DNA of 44,371 nt from a virus (lineage: Duplodnaviria; Heunggongvirae; Uroviricota; Caudoviricetes), in the IMG/VR virus record IMGVR_UViG_2627854098_000001; one strand, 5' to 3'. Both the position numbers and the translations under genes were made by a program. How positions within the stretch are numbered: position 1 is the stretch's first letter; each line of letters begins with the position of its first letter. This document shows positions 34,930-44,371 of this stretch, one piece after another. The notes under the pieces were generated by a model. That model searched no databases and had not been told where the DNA came from. It saw nothing but the letters and a program-made list of their open reading frames with translations.

Positions 34930-35974
34930 ATTTCAGCGCCCGACGCTGGCAGAAAATATCAGTATGCTCCGTAACGATTTATTCGCCAGGCTGGACGTCA
35001 GCGACACGCTCCGGCGCATGGATGAAGACGTGCGGGCAAAGGTGTATGCGGCGGCGCTGCATACGGTTTACGGGTACATCGATTATCTGGCAATGAACAT
35101 GCTGCCTGACCTGTGCGATGAGTCCTGGCTGGCGCGACATGCTGCGATGAAACGGTGTCCGCGCAAGGGGGCCACGACTGCCAGCGGGTATATGCGCTGG
35201 GAAGGCGTCAGCGATGGCCTGAAGGTGACCGCCGGGAGTGTTATTCAGCGCGATGACCTGATTCAGTACACGGCAACTGCCGATGCAACCAGCGCCGGTG
35301 GTGTCCTGCGCGTGCCGATCGCCTGCTCAAGTGCAGGCGCGGTCGGTAACGCTGACGACGGTACGTCATTAATCCTGGTCACGCCGGTTAATGGTCTGCC
35401 GTCTTCCGGCGTGGCAGACACTCTGACAGGTGGATTTGATACTGAAGAGCTGGAAACGTGGCGCGCCCGCGTCATTGAGCGGTATTACTGGACGCCTCAG
35501 GGCGGGGCTGACGGGGACTATGTTGTCTGGGCTAAAGAATTGCCCGGCATTACCCGCGCATGGGCATACCGTCACTGGATGGGAACGGGGACTGTCGGTG
35601 TGATGATTGCCAGCAGTGACCTGATTAATCCCATTCCGGAAGAATCAACGGAAACGGCGGCAAGACAACATATCGGGCCACTGGCCCCGGTGGCAGGCTC
35701 TGATTTGTATGTGTTCAGGCCGGTGGCGCATACGGTGGATTTTCATATCCGTGTGACGCCGGATACACCGGAAATACGGGCTGCCATCACCGCGGAGTTG
35801 CGTTCGTTCCTGCTGCGTGATGGTTATCCGCAGGGAGAACTGAAGGTGTCGCGTATCAGTGAAGCGATTTCCGGTGCGAACGGGGAATACAGCCATCAAT
35901 TGCTTGCACCGGCGGAAAATATCTCCATTGCAAAAAATGAACTGGCGGTTCTGGGGACGATTTCATGGGCGTGA
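34916..35974 (+). CDS. baseplate J-like protein (Mu gp47 / e14 JayE-like)
   Basis: 352 aa; synteny V-W-J-YmfQ-fibre. Confidence 0.75.
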
Positions 35975-36550
35975 CAAACGATGATTACATCCGTCTGTTG
36001 TCGGCACTGCTGCCGCCCGGTCCGGCGTGGTCAGCCAGCGATCCGGCGATTGCCGGTGCGGCACAGTCATTAACCCGCGTTCATCAGCGTGCGGATGCCC
36101 TGATGCGGGAGCTGGATCCGCGCACCACCACCGAACTGATAAATCGCTGGGAGCGTCTGTGCGGCCTGCCGGATGAATGTATTCCCGCAGGAACACAGAC
36201 CCTTCGCCAGCGTCAGCAACGACTGGATGCGAAGGTTAACCTGGCGGGCGGCATCAATGAGGATTTTTTACCTTGCACAGCTTGCTGCCCTGGGCAGACC
36301 AGACGCCACCATCACGCGATACGACAAAAGCACGTTCACCTGCTCATCGGCCTGTACTGACGCGGTGAATGCGCCGGAATGGCGGTATTACTGGCAGGTC
36401 AACATGCCAGCCGCCACCAACAGCACCTGGATGACATGTGGCGATCCCTGTGATTCCGCGCTGCGTATCTGGGGCGACACCGTCGTCGAATGTGTGCTTA
36501 ACAAACTCTGCCCTTCGCATACCTACGTAATTTTTAAATATCCGGAGTAA
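35965..36550 (+). pseudogene. DUF2313 (YmfQ-like) tail protein, frameshifted at a T6 run (36264-36269)
   Basis: ORFs 35965-36360 and 36173-36550 join into one gene of about 195 codons if the run is T5 (...[18 protein letters not shown]...). Confidence 0.6.
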
Positions 36551-36553
36551 TCC

Positions 36554-37297
36554 ATGCATCGTATAGACACGAAAACCGCGCAGAAGGATAAGTTCGGCGC
36601 GGGTAAGAACGGTTTTACCCGTGGTAACCCCCAGACAGGCACGCCTGCCACCGATCTGGATGATGACTACTTTGACATGTTGCAGGAAGAACTCTGCAGC
36701 GTGGTGGAGGCATCCGGTGCCAGTCTGGAGAAGGCGCGGCACGACCAGCTGCTTACCGCGCTTCGTGCGCTGCTGTTAAGCCGCAAGAATCCGTTTAGCG
36801 ATATCAAATCGGACGGCACGGTGAAAACGGCTCTCGAAAACCTTGGTTTGGGAGAAGCGGCAAAACGGAATGTGGGCAACGGGGAAAACCAAATCCCTGA
36901 TATGTCTTTCTGGACGGTTACTGGTAGCAATGGAAATTTTGTGATTCGTCAACCTGACGGGCTAATCATTCAGATGGTTACTGTAAGTATAAGCGGCCCA
37001 GTGGCGATGAATGGAATGACTGATAATGCTTATGCCATCACAGGTTCTAATAAGTCTTATATTGCCACAGCCACATTGCCCTTTGTATTTCCTAATAAGG
37101 TGCTGGGCGTTATCCCTCTGGTATCAACAACAGCTTATGGTGGTGTATCCAGTAATATTACAGGTTCATACGCGACGGCGGTTTGTTCTTTTGCCGCTGT
37201 CAGGGGGAATAATACGATTGTGTTCAAAGTCGACAAACCACTGAATGCAGCCTTTCCTTCAGATACCAGCGTCTCAGCGTTAATCATTGGACGGTAA
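36554..37297 (+). CDS. tail fibre protein: constant N-terminal part plus currently expressed variable C-terminus
   Basis: [22 protein letters not shown]-terminus typical of Mu S / P2 H-type fibres; crossover site inside the ORF. Confidence 0.8.
36831..36856. promoter_or_regulatory. left crossover site for Gin/Pin/Hin-family DNA invertase
   Basis: CTCTCGAAAACC-TT-GGTTTGGGAGAA with AAACC-NN-GGTTT core; inverted copy at 38758-38783; both lie in the same reading frame relative to GGT TTG GGA GAA. Confidence 0.7.
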
Positions 37298-37299
37298 TA

Positions 37300-37743
37300 A
37301 TGAACTCAGTATTCTTTTCACCCGGAAGTAAAAGTTTTTATCTGCAAGAATTGTTTCCAGAATATGAGGATGCGGGAACGCTTCCTGATGATGTTATTGA
37401 AATTACCAGAGAAACATATGAGCAATTTCTTGGTCTGCATCCAGAAGGGAAAGAAATTGGCGCTGACAGTTCAGGACGGCCAGTATGGATTAATTCCCCA
37501 CCCCCTTCAAAAGAGGATGAGGTGTTGACGGCTGAAATGAAAAAAATATCTTTGGTTTCAGAAGTCAATACCTACATCAATACCCATCAGTGGCCTGGCA
37601 AAGCTGCTATTGGTCGTCTGAAAGGCGAGGAACTGGCGCAATATAATTCGTGGCTGGATTATCTGGACGCACTGGAACTGGTCGATACTTCCTGTGCGCC
37701 AGATATTGAATGGCCTACGCCTCCGGCAGTTCAGGCCAGATGA
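37300..37743 (+). CDS. tail fibre assembly protein (Tfa), paired with the expressed fibre
   Basis: Directly downstream of fibre gene; C-terminal DIEWPTPP motif shared with the opposite-strand Tfa. Confidence 0.75.
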   Translation: MNSVFFSPGSKSFYLQELFPEYEDAGTLPDDVIEITRETYEQFLGLHPEGKEIGADSSGRPVWINSPPPSKEDEVLTAEMKKISLVSEVNTYINTHQWPGKAAIGRLKGEELAQYNSWLDYLDALELVDTSCAPDIEWPTPPAVQAR

Positions 37744-38317
37744 CATCCGGCGCTGTGCTGGTATTTGTTGCCGTCACCGCGTCAATGTAATCCAGCACAG
37801 CGTTAAGCCGGGTTGTTTCTGCCTGCATCAGCTTCCGTCCGGCCTGTAATTTCAGCTGAATCAGACCGATGGAAGCCATTGCAGCATCAATCAGTGACTG
37901 ACGCTGTGCTTCTGCCGCGTCTACTGCGGCGCTATGCTGTGCCTCAGTATCGGTCACCCATTTCTCACCATCCCATTTATCGTATGGCGTTAATGGGGCA
38001 ATAGTGGTTGTATTTTCGGGGTAATCACCCGGTGCTGTGATTTGTTTTGATTCTCCCGTTTCGGTGTTATAGACGATTTCACCGCGATGGTCTGGCACAT
38101 ATTCCCATGAATTTAAATTCACAGAACGACAGATAGCATAACCCGCCTTATGTATACCTGGTGCATCCAGACAGGAATATGCCGGGATACCAACACCAAC
38201 GGCAAGATATTCACTTGAAGTGGAAATATATTCCCGAGTTTCACCATCATAGTTATAAACGGTAATATCCCCTGCCTTTGTAGCAACAAGTCCACTATTT
38301 AATATTGCTTTATCCAT
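37715..38317 (-). CDS. alternative tail fibre assembly protein (Tfa'), opposite orientation
   Basis: Convergent with Tfa; C-terminal DVIWPELPE motif; follows the alternative fibre cassette on the minus strand. Confidence 0.75.
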   Translation of the reverse strand: MDKAILNSGLVATKAGDITVYNYDGETREYISTSSEYLAVGVGIPAYSCLDAPGIHKAGYAICRSVNLNSWEYVPDHRGEIVYNTETGESKQITAPGDYPENTTTIAPLTPYDKWDGEKWVTDTEAQHSAAVDAAEAQRQSLIDAAMASIGLIQLKLQAGRKLMQAETTRLNAVLDYIDAVTATNTSTAPDVIWPELPEA

Positions 38318-38770
38318 TATGCTGCTCTCACGATATAGTTAAATGCAATGTTGCGTGGACGGGTATCGACGGGGTTAACGGCCACTGTACCCGACACGGA
38401 CTGGTCATTACCGTTGCTAACGGTAATGTTACTACTGGTTGATCCAATCCCTACTGAATCGGTAAATTTAGCACCTGAGCCGCTCAAAGTTCCCGAGATG
38501 ATAGCTAGCTCCACATAAAAAGTACCTACAGTTGGCTCTTGTGTTGACAGCACCGCACGCCTTGAATCAACGCCGCGCCCATCATCCCAGCCACGAATAA
38601 ACTCACCACGTAAATCAGGCAATTTATTTGTCGGATAAGCCTTTGCCAGTTCCGGGTATTCTTCAGCAGAAAAAGCCGCACCGTTGCATTTCAGCCAGCC
38701 TGTTGGCGGTGTGGCTGAAGGCCATGGAACAGGCACACCAACAGGTAATGCAGAGCCTTCTCCCAAACCA
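38317..38770 (-). other. silent alternative tail-fibre C-terminal cassette (start-less by design; would be expressed after inversion)
   Basis: Phage fibre receptor-binding C-terminus (GWLKCNGAAF...LPDLRGEFIRGWDDGRGVD...NIAFNYIVRA); begins at the right crossover site in frame with the constant part. Confidence 0.7.
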
Positions 38771-38783
38771 ACGTTTATGAAAA
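38758..38783. promoter_or_regulatory. right crossover site for DNA invertase (inverted relative to left site)
   Basis: Minus-strand read TTTTCATAAACG-TT-GGTTTGGGAGAA; shares at least 15 bp with the left site in inverted orientation. Confidence 0.65.
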
Positions 38784-38785
38784 TG
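38777..38785. repeat. target-site duplication ATGAAAATG (left copy) of IS66 copy B
   Basis: Identical 9-mer at 41485-41493 abutting the other IS end (8 bp expected for IS66; 9th base may be coincidence). Confidence 0.75.
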
Positions 38786-38838
38786 GTAACCGGCTCATTT
38801 AAACCGTCTGGTCTGTTTCCTCCGGCTCTACAAAAATA

Positions 38839-39516
38839 ATGTCCATCATTTTTAATGGACACTATCGTATGAAACACCGGACCTGGATCACTGAAGCTTT
38901 ACGTCTTCACTTTGAAGAACATTTACCCCGGGTTGTGGCCGGGCGTCGCCTGGGTGTACCAAAATCAACAGTTTGTAGTATGTTCGTGCGCTTTCGGAGA
39001 GCTGGCCTTTCGTGGCCTTTGCCCGCAGGCATGTCGGAGCAGGAACTTGATGCCTGCCTTTACGGACAATTTTCCACGGTACCAGTCGTACGTCCTGAAA
39101 GCACCGTTATATCCGAAGCCCCCGTGGTAAAAAAACGTCCCCGGCGGCCCAACTTCCCTTATGAGTTTAAAATCGCCTTAGTGGAGCAGTCACTGCAGCC
39201 CGGAGCCTGTGTGGCGCAGATCGCCCGGGAAAACGGAATCAACGATAACCTGCTCTTCAACTGGCGCCATCAATACCGGAAAGGTGGCCTGCTGCCTTCC
39301 GGAAAAAATATGCCGGCACTGCTTCCCGTGACGTTAACGCCGGAGCCGGATAATAAAATCCCGGCCCCCGCACAGGAACCAGAGCAGATAAATACACCGT
39401 CCGACAGTCTGTGTTGTGAGCTGGTTCTGCCGGCCGGAACTCTCAGGCTTAAAGGTAAACTGACGCCGGCGTTATTACAGACACTTATCCGCGAAATAAA
39501 AGGGAGCAGCCACTGA
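38839..39516 (+). CDS. tnpA: IS66 TnpA (orf1)
   Basis: Identical to copy A. Confidence 0.75.
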   Translation: MSIIFNGHYRMKHRTWITEALRLHFEEHLPRVVAGRRLGVPKSTVCSMFVRFRRAGLSWPLPAGMSEQELDACLYGQFSTVPVVRPESTVISEAPVVKKRPRRPNFPYEFKIALVEQSLQPGACVAQIARENGINDNLLFNWRHQYRKGGLLPSGKNMPALLPVTLTPEPDNKIPAPAQEPEQINTPSDSLCCELVLPAGTLRLKGKLTPALLQTLIREIKGSSH

Positions 39517-39863
39517 TGATATCTCTCCCTGCAGGTTCGCGTATCTGGCTGGTTGCAGGTATCACCGATATGCGAAATGGCTTTAACGGCCTGGCATCAA
39601 AAGTTCAGAACGTCCTGAAGGATGACCCGTTCTCCGGACACCTGTTCATCTTCCGCGGACGCCGGGGTGACCAGATAAAAGTGTTGTGGGCTGACAGTGA
39701 CGGACTGTGCCTCTTCACCAAACGCCTGGAGCGGGGCCGCTTCGTCTGGCCAGTCACCCGTGACGGCAAGGTGCACCTTACTCCGGCTCAGTTATCCATG
39801 CTTCTTGAAGGTATCAACTGGAAGCACCCGAAACGAACGGAACGCGCTGGAATCCGCATATAA
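39516..39863 (+). CDS. tnpB: IS66 TnpB
   Basis: ATGA overlap with tnpA; conserved IS66 orf2. Confidence 0.85.
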   Translation: MISLPAGSRIWLVAGITDMRNGFNGLASKVQNVLKDDPFSGHLFIFRGRRGDQIKVLWADSDGLCLFTKRLERGRFVWPVTRDGKVHLTPAQLSMLLEGINWKHPKRTERAGIRI

Positions 39864-39882
39864 CCCGTTGTAAAGTGAGGAT

Positions 39883-41454
39883 ATGGACACCTCACTTGCT
39901 CATGAGAACGCCCGCCTGCGGGCACTGTTGCAGACGCAACAGGACACCATCCGCCAGATGGCTGAATACAACCGCCTGCTCTCACAGCGGGTGGCGGCTT
40001 ATGCTTCCGAAATCAACCGGCTGAAGGCGCTGGTTGCGAAACTGCAACGTATGCAGTTCGGTAAAAGCTCAGAAAAACTTCGTGCAAAAACCGAACGGCA
40101 GATACAGGAAGCACAGGAGCGAATCAGCGCACTTCAGGAAGAAATGGCGGAAACGCTGGGTGAGCAATATGACCCGGTACTGCCATCCGCCCTGCGCCAG
40201 TCTTCAGCCCGTAAACCGTTACCGGCCTCACTTCCCCGTGAAACCCGGGTTATCCGGCCGGAAGAGGAATGCTGTCCTGCCTGTGGTGGTGAACTCAGTT
40301 CTCTGGGATGTGATGTGTCAGAGCAACTGGAGCTTATCAGCAGCGCCTTTAAGGTTATCGAAACACAACGTCCGAAACAGGCCTGTTGCCGGTGCGACCA
40401 TATCGTGCAGGCACCAGTACCTTCAAAACCCATTGCACGCAGTTATGCCGGAGCGGGGCTTCTGGCCCATGTTGTCACCGGGAAATATGCAGACCATCTG
40501 CCGTTATACCGCCAGTCAGAAATATACCGTCGTCAGGGAGTGGAGCTGAGCCGTGCCACACTGGGGCGCTGGACAGGTGCTGTTGCTGAACTGCTGGAGC
40601 CGCTGTATGACGTCCTGCGCCAGTATGTGCTGATGCCCGGTAAAGTCCATGCTGATGATATCCCCGTCCCGGTCCAGGAGCCGGGCAGCGGTAAAACCCG
40701 GACAGCCCGGCTGTGGGTCTACGTCCGTGATGACCGTAACGCCGGTTCACAGATGCCCCCGGCGGTCTGGTTCGCGTACAGTCCGGACCGGAAAGGTATC
40801 CATCCACAAAATCACCTGGCCGGTTACAGCGGTGTGCTTCAGGCCGATGCTTACGGTGGTTACCGGGCGTTATACGAATCCGGCAGAATAACGGAAGCCG
40901 CGTGTATGGCTCATGCCCGGAGAAAAATCCACGATGTGCATGCAAGAGCGCCCACCTACATCACCACGGAAGCCCTGCAGCGTATCGGTGAACTGTATGC
41001 CATCGAGGCAGAGGTCCGGGGCTGTTCAGCAGAACAGCGTCTGGCGGCAAGAAAAGCCAGAGCCGCGCCACTGATGCAGTCACTGTATGACTGGATACAG
41101 CAACAGATGAAAACACTGTCGCGTCACTCAGATACGGCAAAAGCGTTCGCATACCTGCTGAAACAGTGGGATGCACTGAACGTGTACTGCAGTAATGGCT
41201 GGGTGGAAATCGACAACAACATCGCAGAGAACGCCTTACGGGGAGTGGCCGTAGGCCGGAAAAACTGGATGTTCGCGGGTTCCGACAGCGGTGGTGAACA
41301 TGCGGCGGTGTTGTACTCGCTGATCGGCACATGCCGTCTGAACAATGTGGAGCCAGAAAAGTGGCTGCGTTACGTCATTGAACATATCCAGGACTGGCCG
41401 GCAAACCGGGTACGCGATCTGTTGCCCTGGAAAGTTGATCTGAGCTCTCAGTAA
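39883..41454 (+). CDS. tnpC: IS66 transposase TnpC (intact, 523 aa)
   Basis: Full-length ORF with N-terminal coiled-coil/leucine zipper, CxxC zinc-finger and DDE-type region. Confidence 0.9.
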
Positions 41455-41484
41455 ATATCAATACGGTTCTGACGAGTCGCTTAC

Positions 41485-41493
41485 ATGAAAATG
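41485..41493. repeat. target-site duplication ATGAAAATG (right copy) of IS66 copy B
   Basis: Matches 38777-38785. Confidence 0.75.
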
Positions 41494-41545
41494 CAGAAAT
41501 AACGAGCAAATGGCATCATTCCTGCTTTTGTCAGGGAGATCTACC

Positions 41546-41674
41546 ATGCTTATTGGCTATGTACGTGTGTCAACAAATGACCAGAACACAGATCTACAAC
41601 GTAATGCGCTGAACTGTGCAGGATGCGAGCTGATTTTTGAAGACAAGATAAGCGGTACAAAGTCCGAGACCTAG
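41546..41674 (+). pseudogene. pin: serine DNA invertase (Pin/Gin/Hin family), N-terminal 42-codon remnant
   Basis: MLIGYVRVSTNDQNTDLQRNAL.CAGCE.IFEDK.SGT matches the invertase N-terminus including catalytic Ser; similarity stops and a stop codon follows at 41672-41674. Confidence 0.8.
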
Positions 41675-41769
41675 GGCTGACACTGCTGTTCTTGATGCAA
41701 ATTAAAGTATTTAATAGTGAGTAGCGGCCTTACTAATGTAAGGCCACTATAATCATTTTATTAATTGCA

Positions 41770-41966
41770 TTAATCGTGTTTTGGCCATACTTTCAATGCA
41801 ATTTCCCCCAACTTTTTACCCCGCTCCAGGATTTCATCCTCATCCCATTTATCCTTAACTATAAGTGGAATGTTCAGTCGTAGATTGGTGTGGACGATGA
41901 GAGCATCACGTTTTTTCAGAAATACAGCATTCTGAACAGAACGGTTTACGCTAAGGTTAAGCAAAG
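41770..41966 (-). pseudogene. 3' fragment of an unidentified gene truncated by the third IS66-family element
   Basis: Called ORF 41770-42048 starts inside the IS; only the C-terminal 65 codons lie outside; no family recognised. Confidence 0.35.
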
Positions 41967-42037
41967 GTAAGCGTACAGCCTGAACCGTCTGGTCAGAATC
42001 TGACGAATTAGACAAAGTGGTGTCCACCAAATAAGTA

Positions 42038-42439
42038 GTGGGAACCAAAGTGTCAGATATGCAGAAAAATGTGACTCCCGGCAGGCGAAAAGGCTGCCCT
42101 AATTATCCTCCCGAATTTAAACAGCAGCTCGTTGCTGCCTCCTGTGAACCCGGGATATCCATCTCAAAACTTGCTCTTGAAAATGGCATTAACGCCAATC
42201 TGTTGTTCAAATGGCGACAACAATGGCGCGAGGGAAAGCTGCTATTACCTTCTTCAGAGAGCCCCCAGCTACTTCCTGTGACTCTCGATGCAGCTGCCGA
42301 ACAGCCAGAATCGCTCGCAGAGGACCCGGAAACCCTCAGTATCAGCTGTGAGGTAACGTTCCGGCACGGGACGCTCCGCTTCAATGGCAATGTCAGCGAA
42401 AAGCTCCTGACTCTGCTGATACAGGAACTGAAGCGATGA
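42038..42439 (+). CDS. tnpA: IS66-family TnpA (133 aa)
   Basis: Homologous to copy A/B TnpA (PNYPPEFKQQLVAAS...NLLFKWRQQWREG). Confidence 0.8.
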   Translation: MGTKVSDMQKNVTPGRRKGCPNYPPEFKQQLVAASCEPGISISKLALENGINANLLFKWRQQWREGKLLLPSSESPQLLPVTLDAAAEQPESLAEDPETLSISCEVTFRHGTLRFNGNVSEKLLTLLIQELKR

Positions 42440-42783
42440 TCCCGTTACCTTCCGGGACCAAAATTTGGCTGGTTGCCGGTATCACTGATATGAGAAATGG
42501 CTTCAACGGCCTGGCTGCGAAAGTACAGACGGCGCTGAAAGACGATCCCATGTCCGGCCATGTTTTCATTTTCCGGGGCCGCAGCGGCAGTCAGGTTAAA
42601 CTGCTGTGGTCCACCGGTGACGGACTGTGCCTCCTGACCAAACGGCTGGAGCGTGGGCGCTTCGCCTGGCCGTCAGCCCGTGATGGCAAAGTGTTCCTTA
42701 CACAGGCGCAGCTGGCGATGCTGCTGGAAGGTATCGACTGGCGACAGCCTAAGCGGCTGCTGACCTCCCTGACCATGCTGTAA
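42436..42783 (+). CDS. tnpB: IS66-family TnpB (115 aa)
   Basis: Same length and conserved blocks as copy A/B TnpB; ATGA overlap. Confidence 0.85.
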
Positions 42784-42832
42784 ATCTCTTTATCCTGGTT
42801 GTCACAGAATAAGCCCGGTAAAATACGGGCTT

Positions 42833-44371
42833 ATGAACGACATCTCTTCTGACGACATCTTCCTGCTGAAACAGCGCCTGGCCGAACAGGAAGCGCTGAT
42901 CCACGCCCTGCAGGAAAAGCTGAGCAACCGGGAGCGCGAAATAGACCATCTGCAGGCGCAGCTGGATAAACTCCGCCGGATGAACTTCGGCAGTCGTTCC
43001 GAAAAAGTCTCCCGCCGTATCGCACAAATGGAAGCCGATCTGAACCGGCTTCAGAAAGAGAGCGATACGCTGACTGGTAGGGTGTATGACCCGGCAGTAC
43101 AGCGTCCGTTGCGTCAGACCCGCACCCGTAAGCCGTTCCCTGAATCACTACCCCGTGACGAAAAGCGACTGTTGCCTGCGGCGCCGTGCTGCCCGAACTG
43201 CGGCGGTTCACTGAGCTATCTGGGCGAGGATACCGCCGAACAGCTGGAGTTGATGCGTAGCGCCTTCCGGGTTATCCGGACGGTACGGGAAAAACATGCC
43301 TGTACTCAGTGCGATGCCATCGTGCAGGCACCTGCACCTTCGCGGCCCATCGAGCGGGGTATCGCCGGACCGGGGCTGCTGGCCCGCGTGCTGACCTCGA
43401 AGTATGCAGAGCACACCCCGCTGTATCGCCAGTCAGAAATATACGGCCGGCAAGGTGTGGAGCTGAGCCGTTCACTGCTGTCGGGCTGGGTGGATGCATG
43501 CTGCCGGCTGCTGTCTCCGCTGGAAGAGGCGCTTCATGGCTATGTGCTGACTGACGGTAAGCTCCATGCTGATGACACGCCTGTCCCGGTGCTGTTGCCA
43601 GGCAATAAGAAAACGAAGACCGGGCGGTTATGGACCTACGTTCGTGACGACCGTAACGCCGGGTCAACGCTGGCGCCGGCGGTGTGGTTCGCTTACAGCC
43701 CGGACAGAAAAGGCATCCATCCGCAGACCCATCTTGCGGGGTTCAGTGGTGTACTGCAGGCGGATGCATACGCCGGGTTCAACGAGCTGTACCGGGATGG
43801 CCGGATAACGGAAGCCGCCTGTTGGGCTCACGCCCGCCGTAAAATCCACGATGTGCACGTTCGCACCCCGTCAGCCCTGACGGAGGAAGCGCTGAAACGG
43901 ATCGGCGAACTGTACGCCATCGAGGCAGAGATAAGGGGAATGACGGCGGAGCAGCGCCTTGCCGAACGTCAGTTGAAAACGAAACCGCTGCTGAAATCCC
44001 TGGAAAGCTGGCTGCGTGAAAAGATGAAAACCCTGTCGCGACACTCAGAACTGGCGAAAGCGTTCGCATACGCCCTGAACCAGTGGCCGGCGCTGACGTA
44101 CTATGCAGATGATGGCTGGGCTGAGGCGGACAATAACATCGCTGAAAATGCGTTGCGGATGGTCAGTCTGGGCCGCAAAAACTACCTGTTCTTCGGTTCG
44201 GATCATGGAGGAGAGCGGGGAGCGCTGCTGTACAGCCTGATCGGGACGTGCAAACTGAACGGAGTGGAGCCAGAAAGCTACCTCCGCTATGTCCTTGACG
44301 TCATAGCCGACTGGCCGATAAACCGGGTCGGCGAACTGCTCCCCTGGCGCGTAGCACTGCCGACTGAATAA
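42833..44371 (+). CDS. tnpC: IS66-family transposase TnpC (512 aa)
   Basis: Homologous throughout to copy B TnpC; stop codon is the last triplet of the window. Confidence 0.85.

Follow-up and report, generated by a model that had tools for sequence, protein, structure and literature searches.

The stretch of DNA analysed here (IMG/VR record IMGVR_UViG_2627854098_000001, 44,371 bp; "the window" below denotes this whole stretch) carries at positions 36554–38785 a phage tail-fibre gene and a second, oppositely oriented fibre cassette, which we identify with high confidence as an e14-family (Pin-type) DNA inversion switch for the tail-fibre tip. Window positions 36000–38790 are 100% identical to the chromosome of the avian pathogenic Escherichia coli (APEC) strain IMT5155 (NZ_CP005930.1), and the RefSeq annotation places a single full-length e14-family prophage across the window in this strain. 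Its early region is lambdoid and includes the e14 gene names ymfK, ymfT, ymfL, and ymfR, while the structural genes encode an HK97-type head, a contractile tail, and a Mu-like baseplate (gp46, J/gp47, YmfQ/gp48-like). The fibre switch is located at the end of the tail module and is composed of the following features.

36554–36843, plus strand: constant N-terminal part of the fibre, codons 1–97 of the open reading frame (ORF) 36554–37297, up to the crossover centre
36831–36856, plus strand: left 26-bp crossover site, CTCTCGAAAACC-TT-GGTTTGGGAGAA, the same as the e14 stfP site and aligning with Mu gixL
36844–38770: invertible segment, 1927 bp from crossover centre to crossover centre
36844–37297, plus strand: variable tip cassette A, now fused to the constant part (the expressed form), with a sub-threshold match to Pfam Gp53-like_C
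37300–37743, plus strand: assembly chaperone of cassette A, 147 aa (Pfam Caudo_TAP, E 6e-28)
37715–38317, minus strand: tfaE, assembly chaperone of cassette B, 200 aa (Pfam Caudo_TAP, E 4e-30)
38317–38770, minus strand: silent tip cassette B, of the collar-domain type and StfE-like (Pfam phage tail Collar, E 9e-16)
38758–38783, minus strand: right 26-bp crossover site, reading TTTTCATAAACG-TT-GGTTTGGGAGAA on the minus strand; intact, and the same as the e14 site on the stfE/pinE side and the site in IHE3034

Crossover sites and the fibre cassettes

The original prediction, made from the letters of the window, had placed a pair of inverted recombination sites at exactly these two positions, and both were recovered. 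When one is inverted, the two sites agree at 21 of 26 positions and share the central TT. The 14-mer common to both, TTGGTTTGGGAGAA, has exactly two copies in the 44-kb window, in inverted orientation (0.02 expected), and the core AAAC(C/G)T(T/C)GGTTT occurs at two places only, which are the two sites themselves (0.01 expected). Hence, a multi-cassette arrangement with a third crossover site is not seen in the window by the core-pattern scan. A repeat search of the window returned the pair as a 20-nt inverted repeat with 95% complementarity. Comparison with known invertase sites, which had been proposed as a check, gave a clear result: in each site, all 26 bp coincide with the corresponding site of the e14 P segment of K-12, for which the published inverted repeat is TTGGTTTGGGAGAAGG (PMC12529663), and an alignment with gixL and gixR of phage Mu leaves the pattern T-TC-AAAC-T-GGTTT---GAA invariant.

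The left site occupies codons 93–101 of the 247-aa fibre ORF, with the crossover centre after codon 97, the codon near which it had been expected. Residues 1–100 of the fibre differ from e14 StfP at a few positions only, and the constant part has a weak match in PDB to the N-terminal region of the Mu tail fibre protein S (E 0.005). Past residue ~105, cassette A is unrelated to the e14 StfP tip; among 50,697 phage records its relatives amount to three weak matches with 36–37% identity, and no PDB match was found for the tip. Cassette B shares its first ~75 aa with e14 StfE and diverges in the distal half. The tips of HK97 Stf, HK106, and P2-type fibres share 57–64% identity with that of cassette B, which also matches the T4 gp37 tip in PDB.

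Between the sites lie two convergent chaperone genes, as predicted, and the products of both belong to Caudo_TAP and end in the related motifs PDIEWP and PDVIWP. The chaperone of cassette A shares 54% identity with e14 TfaP, the C-terminus being conserved, and TfaE of the window is 91% identical to its K-12 counterpart. The in-frame fusion of the constant part to the alternative tip was also anticipated correctly: inversion of 36844–38770 in silico yields an uninterrupted fibre ORF of 247 aa. The measured length of the segment, 1927 bp, agrees with the proposed value of about 1.9 kb.

Two observations concern the fibre gene in a wider context. Firstly, in both RefSeq annotations the switch is missed: the expressed 247-aa fibre is named "hypothetical protein", and the silent cassette (L282_RS04035, 38317–38784) is given a non-canonical ATT start at 38782–38784. 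Secondly, in megablast searches with junction queries (query ranges 336–800 and 1–464), homology with other E. coli ends ~65 nt before or ~60 nt after the crossover site, within 36779–36907. Such breaks indicate that constant parts and tip cassettes have been reassorted around the site among e14-like prophages.

Both orientations in genomes and cultures

Junctions of the two orientations were searched for in 5,426 complete E. coli genomes, the inverted query being composed of 400 nt of the constant part and 400 nt of cassette B. The inverted junction was found in 78 complete genomes at ≥80% coverage, and among the matches listed (30 of 78, including UTI89, S88, NU14, and ATCC 11775) it is present over 800/800 nt at 100% identity. 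The native junction, i.e., that of the window, was found in 39 genomes. IHE3034 has the window orientation; UTI89, S88, and ATCC 11775 have the inverted one. When reverse-complemented, the segment of UTI89 and ATCC 11775 agrees with 36844–38770 at 1926/1927 nt, and in both genomes the fused fibre is annotated as a 744-nt coding sequence. The sole single-nucleotide polymorphism (SNP) in the segment, at window position 36926, separates IMT5155 from IHE3034, UTI89, and ATCC 11775; it lies in cassette A and changes Gly to Ser (GGC to AGC).

An inversion of this element has also been seen in culture. A published study of structural variants in UTI89 validated an "inversion at 2.9 Mb" by three-primer polymerase chain reaction (PCR), control cultures included (PMC6458436, Table S2, Fig S1). 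Two of the three primers match the window exactly, one at 35992–36011 in ymfQ, i.e., in the left flank, and the other at 37904–37923 within the segment, in tfaE. For the third, a match is obtained in the right-hand DUF262 gene of UTI89 if one surplus A is removed from its printed sequence. Since the primers map onto the element, it is this same element that flips in growing UTI89 cultures. Thus, the search for both orientations, suggested with the original prediction, is answered by 78 inverted and 39 native genomes and by the published PCR, which found both forms in UTI89.

The invertase stub, the insertion sequences, and the state of the prophage

To the right of the switch lie a transposable element and the remains of the invertase gene.

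38786–41484, plus strand: IS66-family (ISCro1-like) insertion, 2699 bp, 2 bp outside the right site and between it and the invertase stub
41485–41516, minus strand: displaced native 5' leader of cassette B, the ATG (41514–41516) and ~10 codons (MPFARYFCIF), 2.7 kb from the cassette
41546–41671, plus strand: remnant of the serine invertase gene pin, 41 codons followed by one foreign codon and a stop (Pfam Resolvase N-terminal domain)
41567–41630: presumed Fis-dependent recombinational enhancer inside the stub
41770–41966, minus strand: 3' fragment of a DUF262/GmrSD type IV restriction gene (RefSeq annotation), which replaces the rest of pin

A complete serine invertase gene, with a catalytic domain and a C-terminal helix-turn-helix (HTH), does not adjoin the switch in the window; its place is taken by the 41-codon stub. 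The stub covers positions 2–48 of the 145 positions of the Resolvase profile, has no HTH, and is labeled in RefSeq as "recombinase family protein, incomplete, missing C-terminus". Its nucleotides 41546–41668 (MLIGYVRVSTNDQ...GTKSE) match the opening 123 nt of e14 pinE at 97% identity, and the homology ends there. The stub is non-functional as an invertase. This stub, with the same neighbor, is also present in IHE3034, UTI89, and ATCC 11775, so that it accompanies both orientations among the close relatives inspected, while the more distant relatives KE58 and MLI104K1, which have the same fibre cassettes, retain a complete pinE at that place. The DUF262/GmrSD gene is intact (1890 nt) in IHE3034 and UTI89.

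At 41675–44371 the DUF262/GmrSD gene lies on the opposite strand at the place where e14 has McrA, and MLI104K1 has other genes there. The position after pin thus behaves as a place where defence cargo is exchanged, and the exchange seen here removed pin codons 42–185.

One and the same truncation in both orientations means that at least one inversion occurred after the truncation, unless the variants later recombined. As the cis invertase is reduced to a stub, we infer that this inversion was catalysed in trans by the invertase of another element. Invertases of the Hin/Gin/Cin/Pin family can substitute for one another. In K-12, PinQ of the prophage Qin inverts the e14 P segment, while pinE mutants are locked (PMC12529663). 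A candidate source of such an enzyme in UTI89 is a P2-like prophage at 0.92 Mb. It contains a complete Gin-like invertase (a 199-aa recombinase, WP_000905061.1, at 918974–919573 of the UTI89 record), which hardly differs from Mu gin over its first 135 nt, and its own pair of gix-like sites with the central TC, ~2.7 kb apart (positions 39625–39654 and 42307–42336 of the sequence handled as L007). This P2-like 0.92-Mb element is the other PCR-validated prophage inversion in UTI89 (PMC6458436). IMT5155 itself is reported to have a P2-family prophage, GI-18, with a probable fibre inversion (PMC4232414).

The stub presumably retains one more component of the system. Two Fis-like 15-mers, GTGTCAACAAATGAC and GTGCAGGATGCGAGC, are found in it by a loose motif scan at a distance of 49 bp, flanking CTACAACGTAATG, and this region is conserved with pinE and Mu gin. 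The stretch 41567–41630 is a putative counterpart of the hin enhancer. The stub may still supply a cis-acting Fis enhancer. The distance from the presumed enhancer to the right site is 120 bp with the insertion sequence (IS) removed and 2828 bp in the window. In Salmonella the Hin enhancer is ~100 bp from hix and has ATTTA/TAATG elements between the Fis sites, and long spacing between enhancer and hix makes Hin recombination more processive rather than abolishing it (PMC3798978).

The IS responsible for the larger distance is bordered by a 9-bp target duplication, ATGAAAATG, at 38777–38785 and 41485–41493. It has Pfam matches to HTH_Tnp_1 (TnpA), TnpB_IS66, and DDE_Tnp_IS66, in agreement with the RefSeq annotation, and its terminal inverted repeats start with GTAA(G/C)CG; both these repeats and the target duplication (~8 bp expected, 9 found) are those of the IS66 family. 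The outer 7 bp of the right crossover site fall within the duplication, yet the 26-mer is kept. The insertion at 38786 is absent from IHE3034, where the site is empty, and from UTI89 and ATCC 11775; IMT5155 is the only one of the 5,426 complete genomes that matches past 38785.

The same insertion accounts for the missing start of cassette B, which it separates from the native ATG and the upstream region. The cassette had been described as start-less; this holds for the window but not for its native state, as in the IS-free relatives the cassette begins at an ATG of its own, located 13 codons before GLGE (MPFARYFCIFINVGLGE...). In IHE3034 the contiguous ORF of cassette B begins at position 7808 of the sequence handled as L002.

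Other parts of the prophage have also decayed. In ymfQ (35965–36550), a +1 frameshift at 36264–36269, six T here vs. five in IHE3034 and UTI89, leaves the gene as two overlapping ORFs, labeled "frameshifted" in RefSeq. Given this frameshift, tail assembly is probably defective in the IMT5155 prophage. A second ISCro1-like copy at 1273–3970, on the minus strand and hence inverted relative to the copy at 38786–41484, is 1 bp shorter, has a frameshifted transposase and an 8-bp target duplication TATCAACG, and splits the integrase gene (947–1270 / 3971–4826). The GmrSD gene is interrupted from 41967 by a different IS66-family element. The prophage of IMT5155 is thus very probably defective, and with ymfQ frameshifted and the integrase disrupted, the switch no longer serves a viable phage there. 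The surrounding block of tail genes is annotated as intact in IHE3034 and UTI89.

Two further observations concern the ends of the prophage. The two inverted 2.7-kb IS copies bracket ~35 kb of it and could support RecA-mediated inversion of the interior; as the target duplications of both copies are intact, such an inversion has not occurred in this assembly. A 20-bp flank shared by the copies, at first sight a hint of IS-mediated inversion, was rejected as a product of tolerant extension, each copy having its own intact target duplication. Outside the integrase end, at 1–955, there are two small genes, for a STAS-like domain protein and a hypothetical protein, possibly accessory or defence cargo.

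Mechanism, alternatives, and comparison with known systems

The assignment to the Mu G / P1 C / e14 P type of switch, made in the original prediction, is upheld by the sites, the gene order, the inverted genomes, and the PCR in UTI89, and the locus has every structural feature of a Din-type fibre switch except a complete cis invertase, the enhancer being a presumed one. In the proposed mechanism, a serine invertase of the Hin/Gin/Cin/Pin (Din) group would pair the two inverted 26-bp sites, cut at the central TT, and rotate the 1927-bp segment. Codons 98–247 and the co-transcribed chaperone gene would thereby be exchanged for the alternative cassette and its chaperone, either fusion being in frame and giving a fibre of 247 aa. 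In IMT5155 the switch would at best be impaired, since the IS puts 2.7 kb between the right site and the presumed enhancer.

Several points weigh against this interpretation. The PCR evidence of flipping comes from UTI89 cultures and not from IMT5155. A second complete invertase of IMT5155 was sought by a chimeric query, with the UTI89 invertase region, and in the genome paper, and was not located. The chimeric query, in which the DUF262 gene is joined to pinE codons 42–185, served as a proxy, with places counted per chromosome; it matches two places in the IMT5155 chromosome, the second being only a putative invertase, and IMT5155 is not among the best 60 matches to the region of the P2-like invertase in UTI89. 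With the chimeric query, several carriers of each orientation (APEC O1, PMV-1, S88, and others) have no second chromosomal match, so that some flips must be old or have been made by plasmid-borne, phage-borne, or more divergent enzymes. Orientation showed no significant association with the second place, itself only putatively an invertase (7/10 vs. 18/44; Fisher p = 0.16). The enhancer is a presumed one, assigned by homology and a loose motif scan. Finally, neither tip could be given a receptor or host range from the phage and PDB matches, cassette A being nearly without relatives and cassette B a generic collar.

The most likely alternative is that a former Pin switch no longer inverts in IMT5155, and that the differences in orientation between genomes record past events. 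We consider it a serious possibility, though on balance a doubtful one. The reduction of the cis invertase to a stub, the IS beside the right site, unique to IMT5155 among the complete genomes, the frameshift in ymfQ, and the split integrase all fit a frozen locus, as do the many carriers without a second chromosomal match to the chimeric query and the locked P segment of K-12 pinE mutants (PMC12529663). On the other hand, the 26-bp site is intact, Din enhancers work at a distance, with long spacing being more processive (PMC3798978), the IS-free twin of the element flips in UTI89 cultures, and a P2-family prophage with fibre inversion has been reported for IMT5155 (PMC4232414).

It is conceivable, if rather unlikely, that the element is maintained as an orphan: having lost its invertase and kept the enhancer-bearing 5' stub, it would be flipped by invertases of co-resident or incoming elements, e.g., P2-like prophages. 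In that case the choice of tip in one prophage would be governed by another, and the host might exploit it for protection from phages, as with PinQ and StfE2. A domesticated switch, in which the fibre-derived protein of one orientation benefits the cell, e.g., by masking a receptor like e14 StfE2, with phage host range being secondary, seems to us improbable. It would agree with the blocking of T2 adsorption by StfE2 from the PinQ-flipped e14 segment (PMC12529663), with the type IV restriction gene adjoining the segment in the position of McrA in e14, and with the retention of a near-identical element in ~100 genomes despite the loss of the invertase. However, in the window the IS has cut off the ORF equivalent to StfE/StfE2 from its native start and upstream region, and the near-identity of ST95-type genomes may reflect recent common descent. 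Moreover, the tail-gene block being intact in IHE3034 and UTI89, ordinary phage function suffices to explain the retention.

A further explanation, that the polymorphism reflects assembly errors or RecA-dependent recombination of short inverted repeats, is scarcely credible: although the perfect shared repeat of 15 nt, within the 20-nt, 95% complementary repeat, does not by its sequence separate the mechanisms, 15 bp is far below the usual length of a RecA substrate, more than 100 independent complete assemblies fall into two clean classes with exact junctions, PCR confirmed both forms, and the repeats are proven e14 crossover sites.

Fibre switches of the Pin type have figured in textbooks since the 1980s. 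The system described here, which we interpret as such a switch, is already known in kind, and the published PCR in UTI89 had shown the inversion of this very element before. What is mildly unusual is only that it is an orphan and has nevertheless continued to invert across ~100 genomes of extraintestinal pathogenic E. coli (ExPEC) and APEC. These near-identical genomes, with the invertase deleted and both orientations present, constitute a natural experiment on the control of a host-range switch across elements, i.e., in trans, to which IMT5155 contributes a variant in which the presumed enhancer is displaced by an IS. There is also a practical value for annotation, the fibre being a "hypothetical protein" in RefSeq and the start of the silent cassette arbitrary.

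The closest known system is the e14 P segment with PinE (Plasterk and van de Putte, 1985; Mehta, Casjens and Krishnaswamy, 2004; both cited in PMC4272514 and PMC12529663). Common to both are the gene order (ymfQ-stfP-tfaP, convergent tfaE-stfE', and pin), the two 26-bp sites, the fibre N-terminus, TfaE, the first 123 nt of pin, and a type IV restriction gene after pin (McrA in e14, GmrSD here). The segment is 1797 bp in e14 vs. 1927 bp here, both fibre tips differ, and the chaperone of cassette A is only 54% identical to TfaP. Unlike in e14, pin is cut after codon 41 and an IS66-family element adjoins the right site; the prophage has its full length, including the genes for head and tail, and lies elsewhere than at icd.

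The Mu G segment has the same architecture, with a constant Sc, two opposed tip-chaperone cassettes (Sv-U and S'v-U'), and the invertase beside the right site; the 5' end of gin aligns with the stub, and the site pattern given above is common to both. The differences are the central dinucleotide (TC in Mu, TT here), the length of ~3 kb, the much longer fibres, and the intact Gin of Mu. In the Hin/hix/Fis system of Salmonella, a serine invertase acts on 26-bp sites, and the start of its gene contains an enhancer at ~100 bp from one of them. In the present locus the presumed enhancer would be 120 bp away from the right site with the IS removed; on the other hand, Hin flips a promoter and not a coding cassette, and the presumed enhancer is 2.8 kb away in the window.

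The 2.9-Mb inversion of UTI89 is the same element, differing by one SNP and by orientation, and is without the IS insertions and the ymfQ frameshift; the crossover sites, the cassettes, and the shortened invertase were not analysed in that study (PMC6458436). A functional parallel is provided by K-12, where inversion of the e14 P segment driven by PinQ produces a chimeric StfE2 that blocks T2 adsorption and thus acts in phage defence (PMC12529663). K-12 differs in having PinE in cis as well; in the window, moreover, the StfE-type ORF is without its start. The flipping of a resident fibre segment by the invertase of another prophage is, however, precisely the situation proposed here.

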